A DNA stretch of 37,537 nt, taken from a virus. This document shows positions 181-21,043 of the stretch, one piece after another. The notes beneath the pieces are model-generated. The model was not told the DNA's origin and searched no databases. It saw only the letters and a program-made list of their open reading frames with translations. The DNA is taken from IMG/VR virus record IMGVR_UViG_3300047160_025247; one strand, given 5' to 3'. The position numbers and the translations under genes are program-made. Position 1 is the first letter of the stretch. Every line of letters starts with the position of its first letter.

Positions 181-780
181 TTACTTGATCTCGATCGTGT
201 CTTTTCGATTTGTCGCTTTGCGCCGAAGCTTGTTGATCGCGCCGATGATCTTGTTCTTGGTGAAGAAGTCGAGCCGCTCGACGAACATCTTGCCGTCGAG
301 GTGATCGAGTTCGTGGAAGATGACGCGCGCCAGAAGGCCACCGCAGCTCAGCTCTTGTTCATGCCCGATGACGTCGATGAAGCGCAGGCGGAGGAAGGCG
401 GGGCGAGCCAAAGACGCCGAGACGCCCGGCATGCTTAGGCATGACTCCTTGTACTGGAAGGTGCCCGACGACTCGACGATCTGCGGATTCACGATGACCT
501 GCGGAAACCACGGCGCCTCGGTGACGGTGTTGTTCGTGAGCTTGGTCAGGCAGCTTTCCAGCGCCGGGCTGCGGTGAATGACGAAGAAACGCTTCGGGAT
601 GCCGACCTGCGGCGCCGCGAGCGCATGCCCGCGCCACTCCGCGCACTTCACCATCATCTCGGAAAACGTGTCACCGAGTTCGTGGAGTTCATCCAGAGTG
701 ACCGGTTCACTTGGTACCAAGAGACGCTTATCCGGATAGAGAAGAAGTTGCATGGAGGAGATAGTAAAGGGAGGTTTCAC
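181..780 (-). CDS. def: Peptide deformylase
   Basis: Three PDF motifs: GHALAAPQVG (GxGxAAxQ-like), ESCLS (EGCLS-like), HELDHLDG (HExxH); true start may be ATG at 753 (MQLLLYPD). Confidence 0.92.
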   Translation of the reverse strand: MKPPFTISSMQLLLYPDKRLLVPSEPVTLDELHELGDTFSEMMVKCAEWRGHALAAPQVGIPKRFFVIHRSPALESCLTKLTNNTVTEAPWFPQVIVNPQIVESSGTFQYKESCLSMPGVSASLARPAFLRLRFIDVIGHEQELSCGGLLARVIFHELDHLDGKMFVERLDFFTKNKIIGAINKLRRKATNRKDTIEIK

Positions 781-785
781 GGAAG

Positions 786-1547
786 AAATCGCTTTTGTTG
801 ATTGGGGTGCTGGTGAAGTTCGGCTCGCTGCTAGTGAACGGGTTTCAATATTGGTGGCGGCTCGCTGCCAATGTTAGGGTTTCTCCAGATGGAAGGCTCG
901 CTGACTGTTGCTGGGTTTCTTCTGGTTCTAGGCTAGCTTCTCGTGAACGGGTTTCTAAGAACGTGAGGCTCGCTCTTCCTCGTCGTGATTCTTCGGAAGT
1001 AAGACACACTAAAAGGCTCGGGGGTTCTTGGAAATCATGCGCGCTTTGCCACACAGGGTTTCTGTGAACGTGAGACTCGCTCGGCTGAATGGGTTTCTAC
1101 AGCTTCAATGACGCGCTCAATAGGATCGGGTTTCTCGCGGGTATTGACTCGCTTAATGGAAACGGGGTTCTGTCATCTATGGGCTCGCTATCCTTGTGCG
1201 GGTTTCTGGTACGGAGAGGCCCGCTAAAACGGATCGGGTTTCTACGCCATTCAGGCTCGCTGTGCATTACCGGGGTGCTGACTACAAACGACGTGCTCAT
1301 GCTCATCGGGTTTCTGATTGCTGCGACTCGCTCCTGGCGAATGGGTTTCTATTGTAAAACGACGCGCTTCGGACCAAGGGGTTCCTATCGTACGATGACG
1401 CGCTCATGCTCATCGGGTTTCTGATCCCTGCGGCTCGCTCCTGGAGAACGGGTTTCTGTTGTCAAATGACTCGCTTCCACCTATTGGGTTTCTTCCAGAC
1501 TATGACTCGCTTCAGCTTAACGGTGTTCTCGCCCACTTAGGCTGCGG
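786..1547 (-). repeat. TIGR-like tandem interspaced guide RNA array, 21 units of ~36 nt (downstream of tas gene)
   Basis: Plus strand alternates GGCTCGCT/GACTCGCT - N10 - GGGTTTCT - N10. GGGTTTCT-type repeats start at 804, 840, 877, 913, 949, 985, 1021, 1056, 1091, 1128, 1164, 1200, 1236, 1272, 1308, 1343, 1379, 1415, 1450, 1486, 1522. Minus-strand unit AGCGAGCC-N10-AGAAACCC-N10. Confidence 0.9.
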
Positions 1548-2595
1548 ATTCTCCGCGGTGCTTCATGCCGAGCTTCGCTTCGTGGTACGGCAGCGACACC
1601 GGCAGACCTTCGAGCTTCCGCCACGCGATGTGAAGATTCATCAGGAAGATCTTCACCGCGTAGCGCACCGCCATGGCGTGGCGGCGTCCCTTCGACGTGA
1701 TCTTGTAGCCGGTCTCCGGATCCTCCTTCCCGTCGTTGTGCACGCCGTACTTCTCGTGGTTCTCCATCCGGTGCTTGTAGTTGCGGTAGATAGTGTCGTA
1801 CTCCGACCCCTTCATCTTGATGAAGGACGGCCCGAGCACGCCGATCAGCTTCGTCTTCAGCAGCGGTTGGAAGGTGATGCCCATGCGCGTCGCCGCCTTG
1901 CCCTCCTTGTTGGTGTAGGCGCGCTCGACAAGATGCTCGGTGCGACGCGAGCGACCGCGACCATCGGAGGCGACGTCGAGGCCGGCGAACTTCCACAGGC
2001 TCGACGGGTACTGCGCCTTGTGGATGTCGATCTCGGAGAGGATCACGCCCGACATCATCGGGCCGCAGCCGCGCACCTTCGACAGGAACTCGGTATAGAT
2101 CGGGTAGTCCTGGAGAATGTTCTCCAGGCGGGCGAAGTGCTGCTTCTCCTGGCGCTCCAGGTCGACGTACTGCGCGATCAGCGACAGCTCGGTGTAGTCG
2201 GAGATCACCGCGTCGCCCTTGAACGTCGCACGCGACGGGAAGGTCTTGCGTCCGTCGGTGACGACCTTGTAGCGCGTGTTCACGAGGTCGAGGATGAGCT
2301 TGCCGGCCTTCGCCGCCTTGCGCTCGGAGTCGGTCTTGCTGTCGTCGACATCCTCGGCGCCGTCGACCTCGGGGTGTTCGGACATTGTGATGACGTCGCT
2401 GATCTTCGGCAGCGTGGCGCGTAGATCGGCGAGGATCTTCTTGCTGTTCTCGTCGAGCGCCCCCTCGGAGTCGCCCGGCTTCTGGCCGAGCTTCACCTTG
2501 AAGTTGCCGACGAGACGGTTGCCGACCTGGATGCGGAGCTTCTGCAGGTCGTAGCCACCGCGGACGATGATGCGGAGGTTCATGGGGATGGGCAT
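1537..2595 (-). CDS. Nop-domain / IS110-related RNA-binding protein lacking a nuclease domain (TasA-like TIGR-associated protein)
   Basis: N-terminal coiled-coil helix LRIIVRGGYDLQKLRIQVGNRL; Nop/Transposase_20-like core FLSKVRGCGPMMSGVILSEIDIHKAQYPSSLWKFAGLDV; C-terminal RRHAMAVRYAVKIFL helix; no DEDD RuvC or HNH N-terminus; flanked by two 36-nt arrays; RBS AAGGA. Confidence 0.85.
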   Translation of the reverse strand: MPIPMNLRIIVRGGYDLQKLRIQVGNRLVGNFKVKLGQKPGDSEGALDENSKKILADLRATLPKISDVITMSEHPEVDGAEDVDDSKTDSERKAAKAGKLILDLVNTRYKVVTDGRKTFPSRATFKGDAVISDYTELSLIAQYVDLERQEKQHFARLENILQDYPIYTEFLSKVRGCGPMMSGVILSEIDIHKAQYPSSLWKFAGLDVASDGRGRSRRTEHLVERAYTNKEGKAATRMGITFQPLLKTKLIGVLGPSFIKMKGSEYDTIYRNYKHRMENHEKYGVHNDGKEDPETGYKITSKGRRHAMAVRYAVKIFLMNLHIAWRKLEGLPVSLPYHEAKLGMKHRGESAA

Positions 2596-2622
2596 GGTGG
2601 GTTCCTTGGTGATGGGTGAAGA

Positions 2623-3073
2623 AAGACGCTTGGCATCATGGGGTTACTAATGTTAAGAGGCTCGCTACGCGATGATAGGTTTCTTTTGCTGTTAGGCTCG
2701 CTAGCCGAGATGCGGTGTTCTGTGGAGTTTAGGCTCGCTGCACATGCATGGGGTTACTATCGCATAGAGGCTAGCAAGAGATTGACGGGGTTCTTCTGCG
2801 GGATGGCTCACTTAGCTGTCATGGGCTTCTGTCGGGTAGGCGGCTCGCTGGTGAAAGTTGGTGTTCTTTGGAAGAAAGACGCACTAGGGGGTGATGGTGT
2901 TCTTTACCTCGGCGGTTCGCTTAGTGGGGGGGGGGGGGATGGGTTACTCGTTGGTAATGGCTCGCTGCGCTACAAAGGGTTTCTTGCCTCCACGGCTCGC
3001 TGGAATGCATCGGTGTGCTAGACTACTTAGGCGCGCTCTTGTCGATTGGTGTTCTTAGCCTAATTGGCGTCAT
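2623..3073 (-). repeat. Second TIGR-like array, 12 units of ~36 nt (upstream of tas gene)
   Basis: Same alternation; loop-type repeats (GGGTTACT/GGTGTTCT/GGGTTTCT) start at 2641, 2677, 2714, 2751, 2787, 2823, 2860, 2896, 2941, 2977, 3012, 3048, separated by GGCTCGCT-type repeats; possible degenerate 13th at 3085. Confidence 0.88.
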
Positions 3074-3120: not shown

Positions 3121-4356
3121 CTAGCTGGAATTCTCGTCTTGCTCTGTTGGAGCGAGATCGGTATACACTCCGAGGGCTCCATAAACACGCGTAGAACCTG
3201 AGGTCTCCGAGGTTGAGTCGGTAGAACTTCCTCCGGTGATTTTGGTTGTGTTTTCCTTGTCCATGTCGTTGTTCATGAAGAACAACCACATACCGCCCTG
3301 CACAACACCGATGATGGCGAAGAAAACCCAGTACGACCATGTCGGTGGCTCGACGGTGAGGTAGTCGAACTCGGACCAGTTCTTGATCTTGTAACGCGCA
3401 GCGATCTCCGCTTCGACCTTTGGAACGATCTCCGCGTTGATTGGTGTGCTGATAAAGATCGTCTCCAGGTTGCGCTTGCACAGTGCTTCATCGGTCCACC
3501 CAAAGCACTGCGCCCAGGTGGCCTTGGTCGGCGACGGGCCTCCGTAACAGATGACCAGATCGTTCTTCTTGCCACCGATCCACTTCGATCGCTGAAGCTC
3601 GGCGATCTGCGACGACTGCGTGCCGAAGCCGACCGCGATGACGTTGACCTTCTTGGTTGGTCCAAGTCGCGCGTTCATCTGATCCCACGCAAGCAGAGGG
3701 ATGGTGCCAGCGGTTCCAAGCAAACGATCAGACGCGAAGACGTTGTCGTTCTTAGGGTACTCGAACACCGGTGCCTCTGGAGGAACTTTCTCAAACGAGA
3801 ACACCGTCGGCGCCGATTTGACCTTGTTCTCCCAGTGGTGCCACCGCGTCACCGGCTTGACGAAGTTGTTCTTGTTGACACTCACGCGATCGTTGGGGTC
3901 TCCGCTGATCATGTGAGAGTTGTGGTCGCTGGTTGTGCGTCTGCCCGGCGTCTCCCGTTCGCCGCCGAAGCGCGCGACGATGTCCTTATAGGTCGCTTCG
4001 TCGATGCCGCCGTCACTGCCGAAGCTGTCGGTGTAGCCCCAGCTCTCCGAGTGAAAGCGCATCGACGGGGACCAATGGTCGAAGACTTCGACGGTGTAGG
4101 TGTAGCTCTCGGTGTGGCTGCGACCCTTCCCATCGGAGACCGTGCGCGTTCCATGCCGCGTCTCGGTGCGGTAGACCGCATATTCGTAGTACTCCGTCCA
4201 CGGCTTGTAGTCGTGCGCTTCAACCACTCGACCAGAGAGCGTCTCAACATCGTCGGTCATCCCCTTGATGACCATCCAGTGGTAGATGCCGGCGATAGCG
4301 AAGCCGACAACTGAGGCTGTGATCCATTCCCAGAACATGATGTGCTTCGAGCGCAC
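3121..4356 (-). CDS. Membrane protein (N- and C-terminal TM helices, large soluble middle), partner of LemA-like gene
   Basis: Hydrophobic WITASVVGFAIAGIYHW and WSYWVFFAIIGVVQGGMWLFF; GGKKNDLVIC motif; frame stays open upstream to 4422 without a start codon. Confidence 0.75.
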   Translation of the reverse strand: MRSKHIMFWEWITASVVGFAIAGIYHWMVIKGMTDDVETLSGRVVEAHDYKPWTEYYEYAVYRTETRHGTRTVSDGKGRSHTESYTYTVEVFDHWSPSMRFHSESWGYTDSFGSDGGIDEATYKDIVARFGGERETPGRRTTSDHNSHMISGDPNDRVSVNKNNFVKPVTRWHHWENKVKSAPTVFSFEKVPPEAPVFEYPKNDNVFASDRLLGTAGTIPLLAWDQMNARLGPTKKVNVIAVGFGTQSSQIAELQRSKWIGGKKNDLVICYGGPSPTKATWAQCFGWTDEALCKRNLETIFISTPINAEIVPKVEAEIAARYKIKNWSEFDYLTVEPPTWSYWVFFAIIGVVQGGMWLFFMNNDMDKENTTKITGGSSTDSTSETSGSTRVYGALGVYTDLAPTEQDENSS

Positions 4357-4422
4357 CCAGAAGACGGCGCCGGCGATGAAGCAGATCGTCGGAAGAAGAT
4401 AGAAAAACCAGATAGAGGTACC

Positions 4423-4902
4423 CTACCTTTCAGGGATCTTGTTAAGTCGAGCGAACCGGCCATGGATGCGTCGCGCGCCTACATTGTAGGCGGTGGCAGC
4501 TTCGATCTCGCTCGTGAAGCAGCCGAGGTTGTGAGTTTTCCTCTTATAAATCACTTGCGCTCTCCAGCGCCGGATGTCTTTCGCCCACCAGACGCCTTTG
4601 AACCGAGACGTTCGTTTCCCACGCGAACCTCTGACGCGATTGCACATGTTCTGGCCGTGCGTGCACAGCCGAAGATTTGATCGAGCATTGTTCAGCCCGT
4701 TTCCGTCTTTGTGGTCGATGCACTCATGCGGCTCCGCTGCGAGGATCTGCCTGTGAAGGTAGACCGTTCCGCCGCCCTGCTTGTTCCTGACGACGTATTT
4801 CTTCCCTCGTGGTTTGATGACGTGCCACACGTAGCAGCTGACCGAAGAGAAATCTCCGTCACTGACTCTGACTTTATAGCCAGCAACGGAGAAGCTCTTC
4901 AT
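4423..4902 (-). CDS. HNH homing endonuclease with C-terminal AP2 DNA-binding domain
   Basis: YLHRQIL...IDHKDGNGLNNARSNLR...N (HNH) followed by SRFKGV...WRAQV...LGCFTSEIEAATAYN (AP2). Confidence 0.92.
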   Translation of the reverse strand: MKSFSVAGYKVRVSDGDFSSVSCYVWHVIKPRGKKYVVRNKQGGGTVYLHRQILAAEPHECIDHKDGNGLNNARSNLRLCTHGQNMCNRVRGSRGKRTSRFKGVWWAKDIRRWRAQVIYKRKTHNLGCFTSEIEAATAYNVGARRIHGRFARLNKIPER

Positions 4903-4904
4903 TG

Positions 4905-5471
4905 CTACTTCTCGGCCTTCCTCGGGAAGACGTTGACGTCGTCGTCCTTGCCGGCGTCGAACGCCGCCTCGGTGCGCGACGACGTCACGATCTTAATCTC
5001 GATGCGCGGACGCGAGCCGACGAACCACGAGCTGGGCGCCTGCATCAGGCAGTTGTCGTGTTGCAGGTTGAGGTCGATCAGCTTCGCTTGCTCCTCGGTC
5101 CACCGATCGCGCGAGCCGGTGATGATGTTCTGCAGGTTGTTGAAGGTCGACGTGTCGACGTTCGGCACCGACTCATGGATCCACTTCGCGAGCGAGCCAC
5201 CGTCGCCGCTGCCGCTGCGCGCCTTGGCGTATCCTTCGAAGATCTCGCGCAGCGCGTTCTTCTGGCCTTCGGTGACCTGCGCCACCTGATTGATCTCCTT
5301 CCACATGTTGTCGAAGCGGCTGGTGTTGTCCTTCTGCTTCGCTTCGATGCGGTTGCGGAGGCCGACTTCGGTGTTGCTGTAGTTCATGTACATGACGCCG
5401 ATGATCAGGCCGAGGCCGATGATCACGACGATGGTGGCGAGGAGAGTGATGTTGATGGCGCCGCGGCGCAT
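4905..5471 (-). CDS. LemA-like membrane-anchored coiled-coil protein
   Basis: ATG 5471 after GAAAGGA; N-terminal TM (ITLLATIVVIIGLGLIIGVMYM) then helical YSNTEVGLRNRIEAKQKDN...FDNMWK. Confidence 0.65.
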   Translation of the reverse strand: MRRGAINITLLATIVVIIGLGLIIGVMYMNYSNTEVGLRNRIEAKQKDNTSRFDNMWKEINQVAQVTEGQKNALREIFEGYAKARSGSGDGGSLAKWIHESVPNVDTSTFNNLQNIITGSRDRWTEEQAKLIDLNLQHDNCLMQAPSSWFVGSRPRIEIKIVTSSRTEAAFDAGKDDDVNVFPRKAEK

Positions 5472-15236: not shown

Positions 15237-18101
15237 TCAGCCTCGGTTCGTCGGAATGCCGGGCAGCGTCGGGAGCATGACGCGCTGCGGCTGGGTTGAT
15301 GCCGAGGCGGCGCCCGCCGCCATCGTTTGGTACTGGGAAAAATCTCCGGTCGGCTTGATCACGGGTGCAGTCTCGACCGCCAGGTGCGCGTGACCGTTCC
15401 CGTTAGCATGGCCGTTGAGCTTCGGTTGCTCGACGTCAACCATCATCGGGCGTGGGATGCCGGTTGCCGGCGGCGGCCAGAGCTTGAAGAGCTGCTCGTT
15501 GATGAGCTTGTCCGAGTTGGCCGTCACACCGTCTTGGATGATGCGGATGAAGGTTTTCGACCCATGCTCTTTGATGTGGAAGGTCGAGCGCTCGCGCAGA
15601 TCGAACATGCGCTGCAGGTCCGCCTTGAACGGATCGAGAACGTGGTTGAGGTTCTCGGCGTTGAGCTTGACGTTGCCGAGTGTGGCGATGAGCGACGTGC
15701 ACGCCTTGCCGATCGCCTGCTCGCTGCTCCAGCCGATCTCGCGGCAACCGCGGCCGATGCGACGTTCGTCGACCGGGCTCATCGGCGTCGACATGACGAT
15801 GCTGGAGACGAGATCGTAGACGAGATCGAGGATGCCGACGCGCTCCTCACCCATCGCGTTGCGCTCGTCGACGACGCGCGGCACGTCGAGGCGCGCCATC
15901 TTGTCGCTGAAGCTCTCCGAGTCGCCATCAGGGAAGAAGTCGTCGACGATGTAGGAAAAGAACGACTCGGCGGCTTCGCGCATCTCTTCAGTCCTTGTCC
16001 ACCAACCTTCGACGCGGCGCTTGAGCTTCTCCCAGCTCACCGGCAGCTGGTCGAGATGGATCATGTGCACGCGGCGGCCGAACTGTGATTCGTTGACGAA
16101 GAACTCCGGCTTGCGCCAGTCGGTGAGCAGCACCGCCGAGTTCACCGGCATCGTCCGCATGCCGAAGTGCAGCTTGTGGTAGCTGTGGCCTGAGCGGTTG
16201 ATGCGAATGAAGAAGGTGTGCAGGCGTTTGTAGTCCTCGGGCTCCTTGGCGAAGTCGTCGAAGAGCACGAGGCGCGCCATGTCGAGCGACTCGCCGAAGA
16301 GCTGATCGAGCCGGTCTTCCTTCACCTCGGACAGGTTCTGGAACTCCTCGCCGAACATGGAGAGCACGATGCTCGCGGTGGTCGTCTTCGCGGCGCCGGT
16401 GGGGCCGGTCGCCCAGAGGATCGGCACCGGGCCCATGCCTGACTCGGCGCAACCCATCGCGATGATGAGCGCAGCCATATAGGTGAACGAGATGCCGGGG
16501 AAGTACTCGGTGATCCGCTGCTCAACGAGATCGCGCGAGAGCCGCTTCTCCAGCGGCAGGTACGAGACGCGCTGCTTGCGGCCTTCGACGACGTGCGGCT
16601 TGCAGAGCACCGCGTGATCCTTCGTCATCGGCGTGTTGTAGTGGCCGAAGATCGGCACGAAGCGCGCCGGCTGGATCGGCGTCCACCCATCGAGCGAGCC
16701 GTTGTTGGTGTACTTCGAGATGCGCGTCTGCGATGGGATCTGCTCACCGTCGGCATCGAGCACACGCGTGCTTGGGAGCACCGCCACGTCGGCCTGGTTG
16801 AGCGGGCGCGTGAGCGGCATCAACGTCGCCGCGTGCAACCACTCGCCGTAGCCGCGCACGAAGCCGAATTCGTTGAACACGCCGGCGATGCGCGGGTCGG
16901 CGATGCCGTTGGTATTGTGCTGATTCTTCAGCAGCGCGCTGTAGAGCACTGGGCGGTATTGCGACGGCAGCTCCGGAGCGTAGACGTCCATCAGGTAGTC
17001 GACGTGCTTGAAGTGCACGAGGTGCTTCACCGCCGTCATGATCGGCGCGACCTCGGAGTCGGCGAGCGACGGAGCCATGCCAAAACGCTTGCGGATCGAG
17101 CCCCACGACATGAAGCCGCCAAGGCCGCGACCTGAGCAGCTGTGGCAGTAGAGACCGTTCTCACCGACGATCACCGGTGGCGACTTCGACGGGTGGTCAG
17201 GGTCGATGATGCAGAAGCTGTGGTCGAGCCGCTGCCCGAGCACGAGGCCCTGGTCCTCCATGAGGTCGGCGATTTCTTCCTCGGTGGCGCCGGCGGCGGA
17301 GAAGCGCTGCAGGATGATGAAGCGATCGGTCGGACAGGTCTCGCGCACCGGGCCGCAGCTGCGGCCGTTGTGTGTCGCCATCGGGTGGCGCGTGCGGGCG
17401 ATCAGCTCGGCGGTGCCACCGCAGGTGACGACGAACGGTGTGGTCAGGCACTGCGCCGCGGCGCCGGCGGCCAACTCGATCGCGGTGTAGGGCGCGTGCG
17501 GGATCGGCGCGTACAGCGCCTTCAGGCCGCCACCGTGCGTCCGCCACCAGCACCACGGCGCCGGGCTGAGATCCTCGCCGAGGAACTCCAGCTCCTGCTG
17601 CGTCGGCTTCGGTTTGGTCACGTCGTGGAAGTCGAGGTCGAGGATCGCGAGCCGGTCGAGGTTCTCCTTTCCCCATTCCAGCACCGTGTTCGGCTGGAAC
17701 CCGCCGCGCTTCAGCAGCTGCACCACCTCCTCGGGCGTGCTCACACCGTATGCCGTTCCCTCGGACGCAGGCTGTGAGATGAGGCGGTGAATCAGACCAT
17801 ACGGAGCATTCGCGATGACTGGTGCAGCTGATGCTGCAGATTCTTCTTCAGCGGTGACCTGCTGAACCCACTGCATCGCTTGCTCAGACAGGAACGCGAC
17901 GCTCGTCTCGTCCAGGTTGCTGTCGCGCGCCACCGCCTTGCGCGCCGACGGCAGGCCTGGGGCCCATTCCTGGTTCGTGTAGGGCGGCATTCCGCCGCCT
18001 TCGATCCGCAGCGCCACGAAGCGCGGGAAACCCCTTACGGCGCGCGTCAGCGTCGCCTTCCTGCCCCCGACCAGGGGCACTTCGAGGGGTTGCACAGCCA
18101 T
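15237..18101 (-). CDS. Primase-helicase (prim-pol-like N-terminus, Zn finger, SF3-like P-loop helicase)
   Basis: ILDLDFHD and RTHGGGLK (AEP-like motifs I/II); CIIDPDH...CHSC Zn finger; Walker A GPTGAAKTT; Walker B LVLFDD; next to Pol A. Confidence 0.75.
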   Translation of the reverse strand: MAVQPLEVPLVGGRKATLTRAVRGFPRFVALRIEGGGMPPYTNQEWAPGLPSARKAVARDSNLDETSVAFLSEQAMQWVQQVTAEEESAASAAPVIANAPYGLIHRLISQPASEGTAYGVSTPEEVVQLLKRGGFQPNTVLEWGKENLDRLAILDLDFHDVTKPKPTQQELEFLGEDLSPAPWCWWRTHGGGLKALYAPIPHAPYTAIELAAGAAAQCLTTPFVVTCGGTAELIARTRHPMATHNGRSCGPVRETCPTDRFIILQRFSAAGATEEEIADLMEDQGLVLGQRLDHSFCIIDPDHPSKSPPVIVGENGLYCHSCSGRGLGGFMSWGSIRKRFGMAPSLADSEVAPIMTAVKHLVHFKHVDYLMDVYAPELPSQYRPVLYSALLKNQHNTNGIADPRIAGVFNEFGFVRGYGEWLHAATLMPLTRPLNQADVAVLPSTRVLDADGEQIPSQTRISKYTNNGSLDGWTPIQPARFVPIFGHYNTPMTKDHAVLCKPHVVEGRKQRVSYLPLEKRLSRDLVEQRITEYFPGISFTYMAALIIAMGCAESGMGPVPILWATGPTGAAKTTTASIVLSMFGEEFQNLSEVKEDRLDQLFGESLDMARLVLFDDFAKEPEDYKRLHTFFIRINRSGHSYHKLHFGMRTMPVNSAVLLTDWRKPEFFVNESQFGRRVHMIHLDQLPVSWEKLKRRVEGWWTRTEEMREAAESFFSYIVDDFFPDGDSESFSDKMARLDVPRVVDERNAMGEERVGILDLVYDLVSSIVMSTPMSPVDERRIGRGCREIGWSSEQAIGKACTSLIATLGNVKLNAENLNHVLDPFKADLQRMFDLRERSTFHIKEHGSKTFIRIIQDGVTANSDKLINEQLFKLWPPPATGIPRPMMVDVEQPKLNGHANGNGHAHLAVETAPVIKPTGDFSQYQTMAAGAASASTQPQRVMLPTLPGIPTNRG

Positions 18102-20065: not shown

Positions 20066-21043
20066 GTGCGCATCCCCGACCACCACTTGAATTCCGCCCT
20101 CGCCCTCGTCGAACCGCTGCGCACCGCCTGGCTGCTGGAGCTGACGACCCGCTACACCACGGAGGCCGAGCAGAACGCGCCGCGCACGGTCGAGCTGGCG
20201 CGCACGCAGGAGCCGAAGGACTGGAAGGTGCTCGACTACGTGAAGATCATCCACCCGGAGAAGGATCGCTACCGCTACATCAGCGACCGCCATGCCTATG
20301 CGCATGGTCTCGCCAGGGATGGGAAGGTCGAGCCCGACTATGAGCGGGCGCGCCGCGATGCGGCGAGTACCGTCAACGGTGCGTGTGATTTCTTCGCGGC
20401 GCGCCTCTCGGAGAAGCTCACGCTCGCCTTCGGCCCGCTCGCGCCCAAGCTCCGCGCCGAGATGCAGCCGCGCGGCGGCGTGATCTACGGCAACGTCACC
20501 GCGGCGTTCGATAAGCACCTCGTGGTGTTCGACGCCACCGGCATGACCAACTACCGCTACGGCTGGAACAGCCGCAACCGCAACATGACGGTTTACGCTC
20601 AATATCCCATGCGGGTGATCTCGGCGCACATCGACGGGCATGGCGACTTCAACGGCATCGGCGCCGAAGAAGTCGGTAGCAGGATCCTCGGCTACGACGT
20701 CATCAAGAAGGTGCGCGAGGAGAACGAGCAGCGCAAGCGCGCGACGATCGAGGAGCGCATGTATGTCGATCGCCTGGAGGTCGAGAAGCGTGCGTACGCC
20801 GACATCGAGTGGGCGCTCAAGTGCATCGAAGACTGTGAGACCGCGACGCGTGAAGGGCGCCCCTACAGCAACACCGAGTACATCACCGACCGCCGCGCCG
20901 AGATCGCGAAGATCGTCGAGCGGCGCAAGCTCACCGTCGTTCCGACCACCAAGGAACAGGCCAAGGTGCTCGCCAAGGAGCGCCTCGCCGAGCTGAAGAA
21001 GATTCGTGCGGCGCGGAAGGCCGCTAGAGAGGCGAAGGCCTGA
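20066..21043 (+). CDS. Hypothetical protein (325 aa)
   Basis: GTG after GAAAGGA; strong GC3 codon bias. Confidence 0.7.
   Translation: MRIPDHHLNSALALVEPLRTAWLLELTTRYTTEAEQNAPRTVELARTQEPKDWKVLDYVKIIHPEKDRYRYISDRHAYAHGLARDGKVEPDYERARRDAASTVNGACDFFAARLSEKLTLAFGPLAPKLRAEMQPRGGVIYGNVTAAFDKHLVVFDATGMTNYRYGWNSRNRNMTVYAQYPMRVISAHIDGHGDFNGIGAEEVGSRILGYDVIKKVREENEQRKRATIEERMYVDRLEVEKRAYADIEWALKCIEDCETATREGRPYSNTEYITDRRAEIAKIVERRKLTVVPTTKEQAKVLAKERLAELKKIRAARKAAREAKA

Follow-up and report, generated by a model that had tools for sequence, protein, structure and literature searches.

What does a phage gene encode when its product has a transposase-like core and short-repeat arrays stand on both sides of it, and what would RNAs made from such arrays address? 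The question is raised by a locus near one end of a 37,537-nt stretch of viral DNA (IMG/VR record IMGVR_UViG_3300047160_025247), referred to as the window below. An original prediction, made from the letters alone, had proposed a nuclease-free TIGR-TasA system with 21 + 12 dual-repeat guide units on the minus strand. Full parsing of that strand showed 33 units, 12 upstream of tasA (3073 to 2666) and 21 downstream (1547 to 829), which flank the 352-aa gene and reproduce the predicted count exactly. Each unit is about 36 nt long and is built from two alternating repeats with ~9-nt spacers; in the upstream array it reads edge repeat AG-CGAG-CC-N, 9-nt spacer A, loop repeat AG-AAAC-CC-N, 9-nt spacer B. 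The exact pattern AGCGAGCC-N8-12-AGAAACCC was matched five times, always on the minus strand and within 877-3001, and never in 100 shuffles. A relaxed pattern scanned over the minus strand of the whole window gave 35 matches, 28 of them within the two arrays, where the steps were 35-37 nt or about twice that, apart from a single step of 45. Matches in Markov shuffles numbered 4-10 and were scattered. A search for solo units elsewhere in the window returned only chance-looking matches. Truncated edge repeats are found at both ends of both arrays, which is a trait of TIGR-Tas systems, the first edge repeat of the upstream array being 5'-truncated (for the 3' ends, see Table 1). Unit 1 of the downstream array overlaps the final codons and the stop codon of tasA. 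Between the edge repeat that ends the upstream array and the tasA ATG lie a pyrimidine-rich tract and then an AAGGA ribosome-binding-like site.

Table 1. Positions of the arrays, of tasA and its parts, and of neighbouring genes in the window.
Feature	Position	Strand	Basis
Peptide deformylase, neighbour outside the system	181..780	minus	PF01327 E 1e-33; no match in 112 related loci
3'-truncated edge repeat ending the downstream array	790..793	minus	array parsing
Downstream TIGR array, 21 units	794..1547	minus	pattern scans, full parsing, contig matches
Three-unit duplication of 107 nt within the downstream array, copies 81-86% identical	1290..1511	minus	repeat search and parsing
tasA, 352 aa, coiled coil and Nop domain, no nuclease domain	1537..2595	minus	ORF, sequence, model, profile
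C-terminal loop with Y337 and H346, candidate guide-processing dyad	1558..1587	minus	alignments
~45-residue insertion, about residues 61-105	2281..2415	minus	alignment, pLDDT
3'-truncated edge repeat ending the upstream array	2625..2630	minus	sequence
Upstream TIGR array, 12 units	2631..3073	minus	pattern scans, full parsing, contig match
Spacer B of unit 2966, stretched to 19 nt by a 13-C run	2922..2940	minus	parsing and contig comparison
phrog_2087 protein, neighbour outside the system	3121..4356	minus	PHROG match; no match in 112 related loci
Stand-alone HNH-AP2 endonuclease gene, 1.8 kb upstream of tasA	4423-4902	minus	no match in related loci
954-aa ORF adjoining the DNA polymerase gene	15237-18101	minus	no Pfam, PHROG or NCBIfam match

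Since contigs from public soil DNA runs match the arrays without substitutions, the arrays are not an assembly artefact. Eight such runs were compared and five gave matches (X1, X2, X3, X5 and X8), all as partial pieces of which no single one covers the entire locus, and the matching runs may come from a single campaign. The phage itself is present in soil runs X1-X5 and X8. Pieces of the downstream array are present in contigs of X1, X2, X3 and X5 with no differences, and the X8 contig matches 2857-3150 of the upstream array with 0 substitutions and two bases fewer in the poly-C near 2926. Unit 2966, whose spacer holds this tract, is likely an aberrant guide. At several worn units and array ends (window 2885, 2630, 1010 and 793) a common T/C-rich, TTCTTCC-like stretch directly follows the edge repeat. 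Rfam gave no match for the locus, and a sigma-70 promoter search found none. An intrinsic terminator behind the array is usual in TIGR-Tas systems, though not obligatory. Intrinsic terminator matches numbered two versus 3.4 expected; a weak 5-pair match lies at 2637-2625, and the downstream array is followed by none. No stable fold was seen among four guides examined (z -0.8 to 1.2).

The repeats themselves assign the strand of the RNA. In the cited part of PMC12045711, TIGR repeats are described as 9 nt long, with box D first, box C last and a box C/D pair, the edge repeat having a second covarying pair and the loop repeat being A-rich. Both repeats of the present locus follow AG-NNNN-CC-N. 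Positions 2-7 of the edge repeat pair in 31/31 units (20 G-C, 11 G-U) and positions 3-6 in 30/31; in the loop repeat, 2-7 pair in 30/31 and 3-6 in 1/31. Two pairs in the edge repeat and one in the loop repeat agree with that description, and the G-U wobbles in the edge pairing place the RNA on the minus strand. Among the known relatives, four loci (L070, L071, L074 and L079) have CCG rather than CCA as box C in both repeats.

The layout first proposed for the unit, 8-nt repeats separated by N10, was right in its two repeats and its strand, and needs revision in the N10, which is better split into a single box-C base and a spacer of 9 nt. Under the N10-type reading, the 62 spacers of the 31 full-repeat units comprise 52 of 10 nt, five of 9 nt and five of 11 nt, the poly-C-stretched spacer being cut to 10 nt for this tally; 61 of the 62 are distinct, in keeping with the mostly unique spacers originally noted. 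The position after CC is occupied by an invariant A in most relatives, or by G in four pattern-found loci, and this fixes the spacer length at 9 nt. Here that position holds A at only 17/62 places, and a 9-nt spacer next to a variable third box-C base, as in FpTIGR, is the better reading. We considered this variable base as a novelty and rejected it as such, as the array of Ralstonia phage RSL1 and, by eye, FpTIGR also vary there.

The protein between the arrays is a Tas protein that lacks a nuclease domain. The tasA product scored 120.8 bits against NCBIfam NF052498 (TIGR_Tas_endo; cut-off 100), and its sole sequence matches among solved structures were TaTasR (9MTY, E 1.4e-10) and SpTasH (E 8.6e-8). 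The match to PF02371 (Transposase_20) was weak and fell below the cut-off (E 0.0047), and the ORF matched neither a RuvC nor an HNH family. An AlphaFold2 model built on a 23-sequence alignment (mean pLDDT 70.1, pTM 0.62) was compared with known structures. Ranks 1-10 in Foldseek were all Tas chains (E 2e-8 to 5e-7), and IS110 recombinases came next (E 1e-3 to 6e-3). VIA-align placed model residues 2-346 on residues 66-298 of the TasH chain (Z 18.8, rmsd 3.9, 220 aligned) and residues 3-335 on 111-303 of the TasR chain (Z 18.1, rmsd 2.9, 192 aligned); in its wide search the IS110 recombinase ISCro4 reached Z 13.3 and the next chain after it Z 8.1. Model residue 2 falls on TasH 66 and residue 3 on TasR 111, just past their nuclease domains. 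As the Tas match begins where the nuclease domains of TasR and TasH stop, we identify the protein as TasA. Its N-terminus is helical in the model, and the array lies directly upstream of its start codon.

The profile and structure search that the original prediction had suggested as a check therefore placed the product above the NCBIfam cut-off, with a Nop fold that matches Tas chains best, and the proposed Nop/Transposase_20-like core free of RuvC and HNH was borne out. Together with the sequence matches to TasR and TasH, the repeat pairing and the arrays beside relatives, this supports the TIGR-TasA identity, which we regard as close to certain. It had also been foreseen that automated annotation would likely call the gene an IS110 transposase. 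This holds for the PHROGs label and for the RefSeq record of a homologue, both of which read 'transposase', and does not hold for the current NCBIfam, which names TIGR-Tas.

Two parts of the protein deserve description. The insertion, located in the coiled-coil region, consists of an acidic low-confidence linker and a helix (pLDDT <50 at 61-100); it is common to the closest relatives and missing from most others. In the C-terminal loop, all 23 aligned sequences have Y337, which falls on the catalytic Y289 of SpTasH; H346 is nearly invariant and displaced outwards by two residues relative to SpTasH H296; H268 and E292, given as SpTasH processing residues in the cited part of PMC13421893, are not conserved at the aligned positions here. 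On these alignments, self-processing of guides by TasA is plausible.

Homologues of TasA are numerous, with 1,751 proteins found at E up to 0.001. A co-directional array, defined as four or more units all on the strand of the gene, accompanies the gene in 75 of 101 protein-found related loci, which are not independent, several being the same contig. The nearest proteins are 70-75% identical; in the collections scanned, no DNA of these was present, and the best DNA loci covering most of the protein are 53% identical. A scan for relatives by DNA polymerase found none. An identical TasA protein is on record from a 106,277-base contig. The neighbours of the present locus are phage genes on the same strand, encoding peptide deformylase, HNH-AP2, dCTP deaminase, a MazG-like protein and DNA polymerase A. 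Several arrays among the relatives were observed in passing. In the isolated phage RSL1 (L080; NC_010811.2), the 'transposase' preceding an unannotated, worn TIGR array of ~1.4 kb (3970-5390, after ORF034) is a TasA homologue of 34% identity, and this phage thus carries the system. A complete 86.8-kb phage (L079 / G002) has two blocks with ~40 TIGR-like units in all, and long open frames run across them; no Tas homologue was found in it by protein search or six-frame profile, and its array is possibly an orphan. Another record (L072 / G005), with 68 distinct guides in total, carries an array of 36-37 units more than 40 kb from its only tas gene.

The arrays preserve part of their own history. 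The three-unit duplication in the downstream array yields the guide pairs 1475/1368 and 1439/1332, and similar spacers are in excess, with 26 pairs having >=7 matches versus 11.6 ± 3.5 (maximum 28 in 300 shuffles). Because of this duplication and excess, the data show that part of the array arose by duplication followed by drift. Among relatives, 13 of 76 distinct arrays carry an identical spacer again with an unrelated partner. The sites rebuilt from units 2885 and 829 are mirror sites that agree at 12/18.

The relatives also revealed a relation between the two spacers of a guide. Of 360 de-replicated guides from loci L001-L112, 137 have a final base of spacer A that is complementary to the final base of spacer B, versus a permutation expectation within loci of 86.7 ± 6.6 (maximum 109 of 2,000). 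Other position pairs gave z of at most 3.1 versus 9.8 for these bases, and in the other register the A/B end bases were complementary in 254/1,137 (22%). In the present locus the count is 11/33 versus 8.2 expected (P 0.17, not significant). The covariation speaks for the edge/loop register, and it suggests a one-base overlap, or pairing, at the junction in some guides of the TasA clade; at the level of the family it fits one shared target for A and B. This departs from the statement in the cited part of PMC12045711 of no obvious A/B spacer covariation, and target searches should add a one-base overlap.

According to the cited part of PMC12045711, a target reads as spacer A joined to the reverse complement of spacer B, and a gap of 0-2 bp between the two is tolerated. 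Using A + rc(B), gaps of 0-2 and three spacer definitions, we searched the window, 37.5 kb of the ~106-kb contig, and found match counts equal to those of shuffled A/B pairs. The sole non-array match at two mismatches was that of unit 2739 at 20447 (16/18), for which chance gives 0.2-0.35 per shuffle. Geometries of 8+0/1/2+8 gave no match in the window and a single one-mismatch match, of unit 3037, in L098/L102. Six related TIGR phage records (G001-G005 and RSL1; three complete and one at 94%) were searched for self-targets with the 9+9 geometry only, RSL1 being represented by 23 units parsed from its worn array; there were none at 0-1 mismatch, and two-mismatch matches were at shuffle level. 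When 26 of the 33 window guides were compared with these six records, three near matches were found, again at chance level. Joining the spacer pairs and searching phage DNA, as originally suggested, thus uncovered no target above chance in the 37.5-kb window or in the six phages. The 950 guides of relatives gave one perfect and five one-mismatch matches in 1.1 Mb of DNA (expected, 0.13 and 5.2). The perfect 18-bp match, of the L062 unit at 1948 to a small ORF at 2466-2483 of L053, another tas-bearing contig, is suggestive at most as a real target, given the 0.13 expected per shuffle. A search of the literature, with subscription papers outside its coverage, turned up no report dealing with natural targets of TIGR systems.

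Rebuilt target sites of the duplicated units 1475 and 1368 share one reading frame (FDNPGE and FYNPGE), and of the three changes between them two are silent, at third codon positions. In a viral collection, 18-bp patterns match about equally often by chance. A scan of such a collection for the rebuilt site returned five contigs, with the matches in four unrelated proteins and in no case the 1368 allele, and we rejected the site as a shared target gene, as chance for now. A wider proposal would have the guides track an evolving target, with 1475/1368 addressing alleles of a rival-phage gene, some halves overlapping by one base, the base after CC serving as a tenth guide base and the insertion recruiting a partner. 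We hold this to be improbable; if true, it would supply a natural target and reveal how new TIGR spacers can arise, by duplication and then drift.

How would such a system act? Going by published family members, the arrays would be read together with the surrounding minus-strand genes, and TasA dimers may cut the transcript in the middle of the edge repeat, possibly with Y337/H346, to give a predicted 36-nt guide of the form AGCC-N-spacerA-AGAAACCC-N-spacerB-AGCG. Spacers A and B would pair with opposite strands, over ~17-18 bp and with no PAM. DNA binding without cutting would follow from published TasA work, and the bound complex may block transcription or replication. Its targets would be rival phages or other mobile elements of the same host, with host genes second, which is the least certain step. 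We lean towards a phage TIGR-TasA whose 33 two-spacer units would supply 36-nt guides, likely steering the dimer to bind and silence DNA outside the genome of the phage. In its favour, self-targets above chance were found neither in the window nor in six related phages. Against it stand the failure to find a target for any of the 33 guides in the 37.5 kb searched, the restriction of reported repression to stem-loop systems, the displaced H346 and unconserved processing residues, and the wear of the array, with a poly-C expansion, some units with 4-5 repeat mismatches and 10/62 spacers off-length. The same machine could instead serve mainly to silence host genes, for defence or metabolism, during infection. 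Self-targets are lacking in the window and in six related phages, and the cited part of 10.64898/2026.09.09.750476 reports that reprogrammed MbTasA and CsTasR repress a chromosomal gene and names this role as possible; we consider host silencing as the main use a lesser, rather unlikely, possibility. A programmable life-cycle repressor, with guides directed at genes of the phage itself, might be argued from the match of unit 2739 and from a search that spans about one third of the contig. However, that match is at chance level, the 8+0/1/2+8 geometries gave nothing in the window, and in 6/6 related phages the self-matches under the 9+9 geometry did not exceed shuffles, a result that argues against self-regulation as the main use of the family. 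We judge this role very improbable here.

Rather than forming a plain roadblock, TasA might be an addressing module that recruits a partner such as an integrase, a ParB-like protein, a nuclease or a host factor, perhaps through its acidic insertion. The insertion is kept in the close clade, the HNH-AP2 gene stands upstream, and the cited part of PMC12045711 raises integrase help and occasional ParB partners. Yet of nine window proteins compared with 112 related loci, only DNA polymerase recurs (seven loci, 27-30% identity), no ParB or integrase family was found among the 26-30 window ORFs scanned, and the insertion resembles, by eye, a duplicate of the adjacent helix; recruitment therefore seems doubtful to us. 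That the gene is an IS110-family transposase beside unrelated repeats would agree with the weak PF02371 match, the PHROG 'transposase' label and a fold common with IS110. However, the ORF opens with a coiled-coil helix, where the model also starts, it matches no DEDD family and a DEDD/RuvC-fold recombinase domain is absent; Tas chains clearly outrank IS110, and the arrays show TIGR pairing and recur beside relatives. This reading is already largely refuted, and we give it almost no credence.

The locus is a clear but ordinary example among known systems, and no partner gene, target or architecture sets it apart. With it, one more clean and large (33-guide) dual-repeat TasA locus joins the thousands on record, the cited part of 10.64898/2026.09.09.750476 counting 4,126 dual-repeat arrays. 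Natural targets and spacer origin are stated there and in the cited part of PMC12045711 as open questions, and the locus would matter more if either could be read from it. In the cited passages, stem-loop MbTasA binds DNA and represses genes (10.64898/2026.09.09.750476), FpTasA binds 36-nt guides (PMC12045711) and FpTasA-VPR activates a targeted reporter (10.64898/2026.08.11.744272). Since the cited part of 10.64898/2026.09.09.750476 reports repression for stem-loop systems and not for dual-repeat TasA, the present locus is a fair candidate for testing gene repression, and also guide self-processing, by a dual-repeat TasA.

Among the closest known systems is FpTIGR/FpTasA of Flavonifractor plautii (Faure et al. 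2025; cited part of PMC12045711), a dual-repeat system that likewise has a solo Nop protein. By eye, the two proteins have common motifs from an N-terminal YD.QKLRI..GNR to a C-terminal PY..AKLG, and FpTIGR has the same AG...CC frame, a loop repeat resembling AGAAACCC, spacers of 9 nt and, after CC, a base that varies. In contrast to FpTasA (297 aa, compared by eye only), TasA here has 352 aa and the acidic insertion, its edge core is CGAG/CGCG rather than TGTR, and two arrays flank the gene. SpTIGR/SpTasH of Salicola phage CGphi29 (PDB 9W02-9W04, 21KL) has, by eye, the identical edge repeat AGCGAGCC, and is alike in its Nop fold and in the tyrosine of the C-terminal loop; the present system differs in having no HNH domain, in its loop repeat, in a histidine moved by two residues and in a third box-C base that is not a fixed A. 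In TaTIGR/TaTasR the arrays likewise lie both upstream and downstream, and both repeats here differ from those of TaTIGR, by eye, only at the first base, box D being AG rather than UG; the protein resembles TaTasR in sequence and fold but has no RuvC domain. MbTasA and PlTasA are also nuclease-free and, in the cited parts of 10.64898/2026.09.09.750476 and 10.64898/2026.08.11.744272, shown to bind DNA, with repression for MbTasA; they have stem-loop arrays and no Y/H loop, whereas the present locus is dual-repeat. The IS110 bridge recombinases (IS621, ISCro4) have the Nop-like RNA-binding fold in common with TasA, which in contrast has no recombinase domain and is served by an array of 36-nt units, not one bridge RNA.
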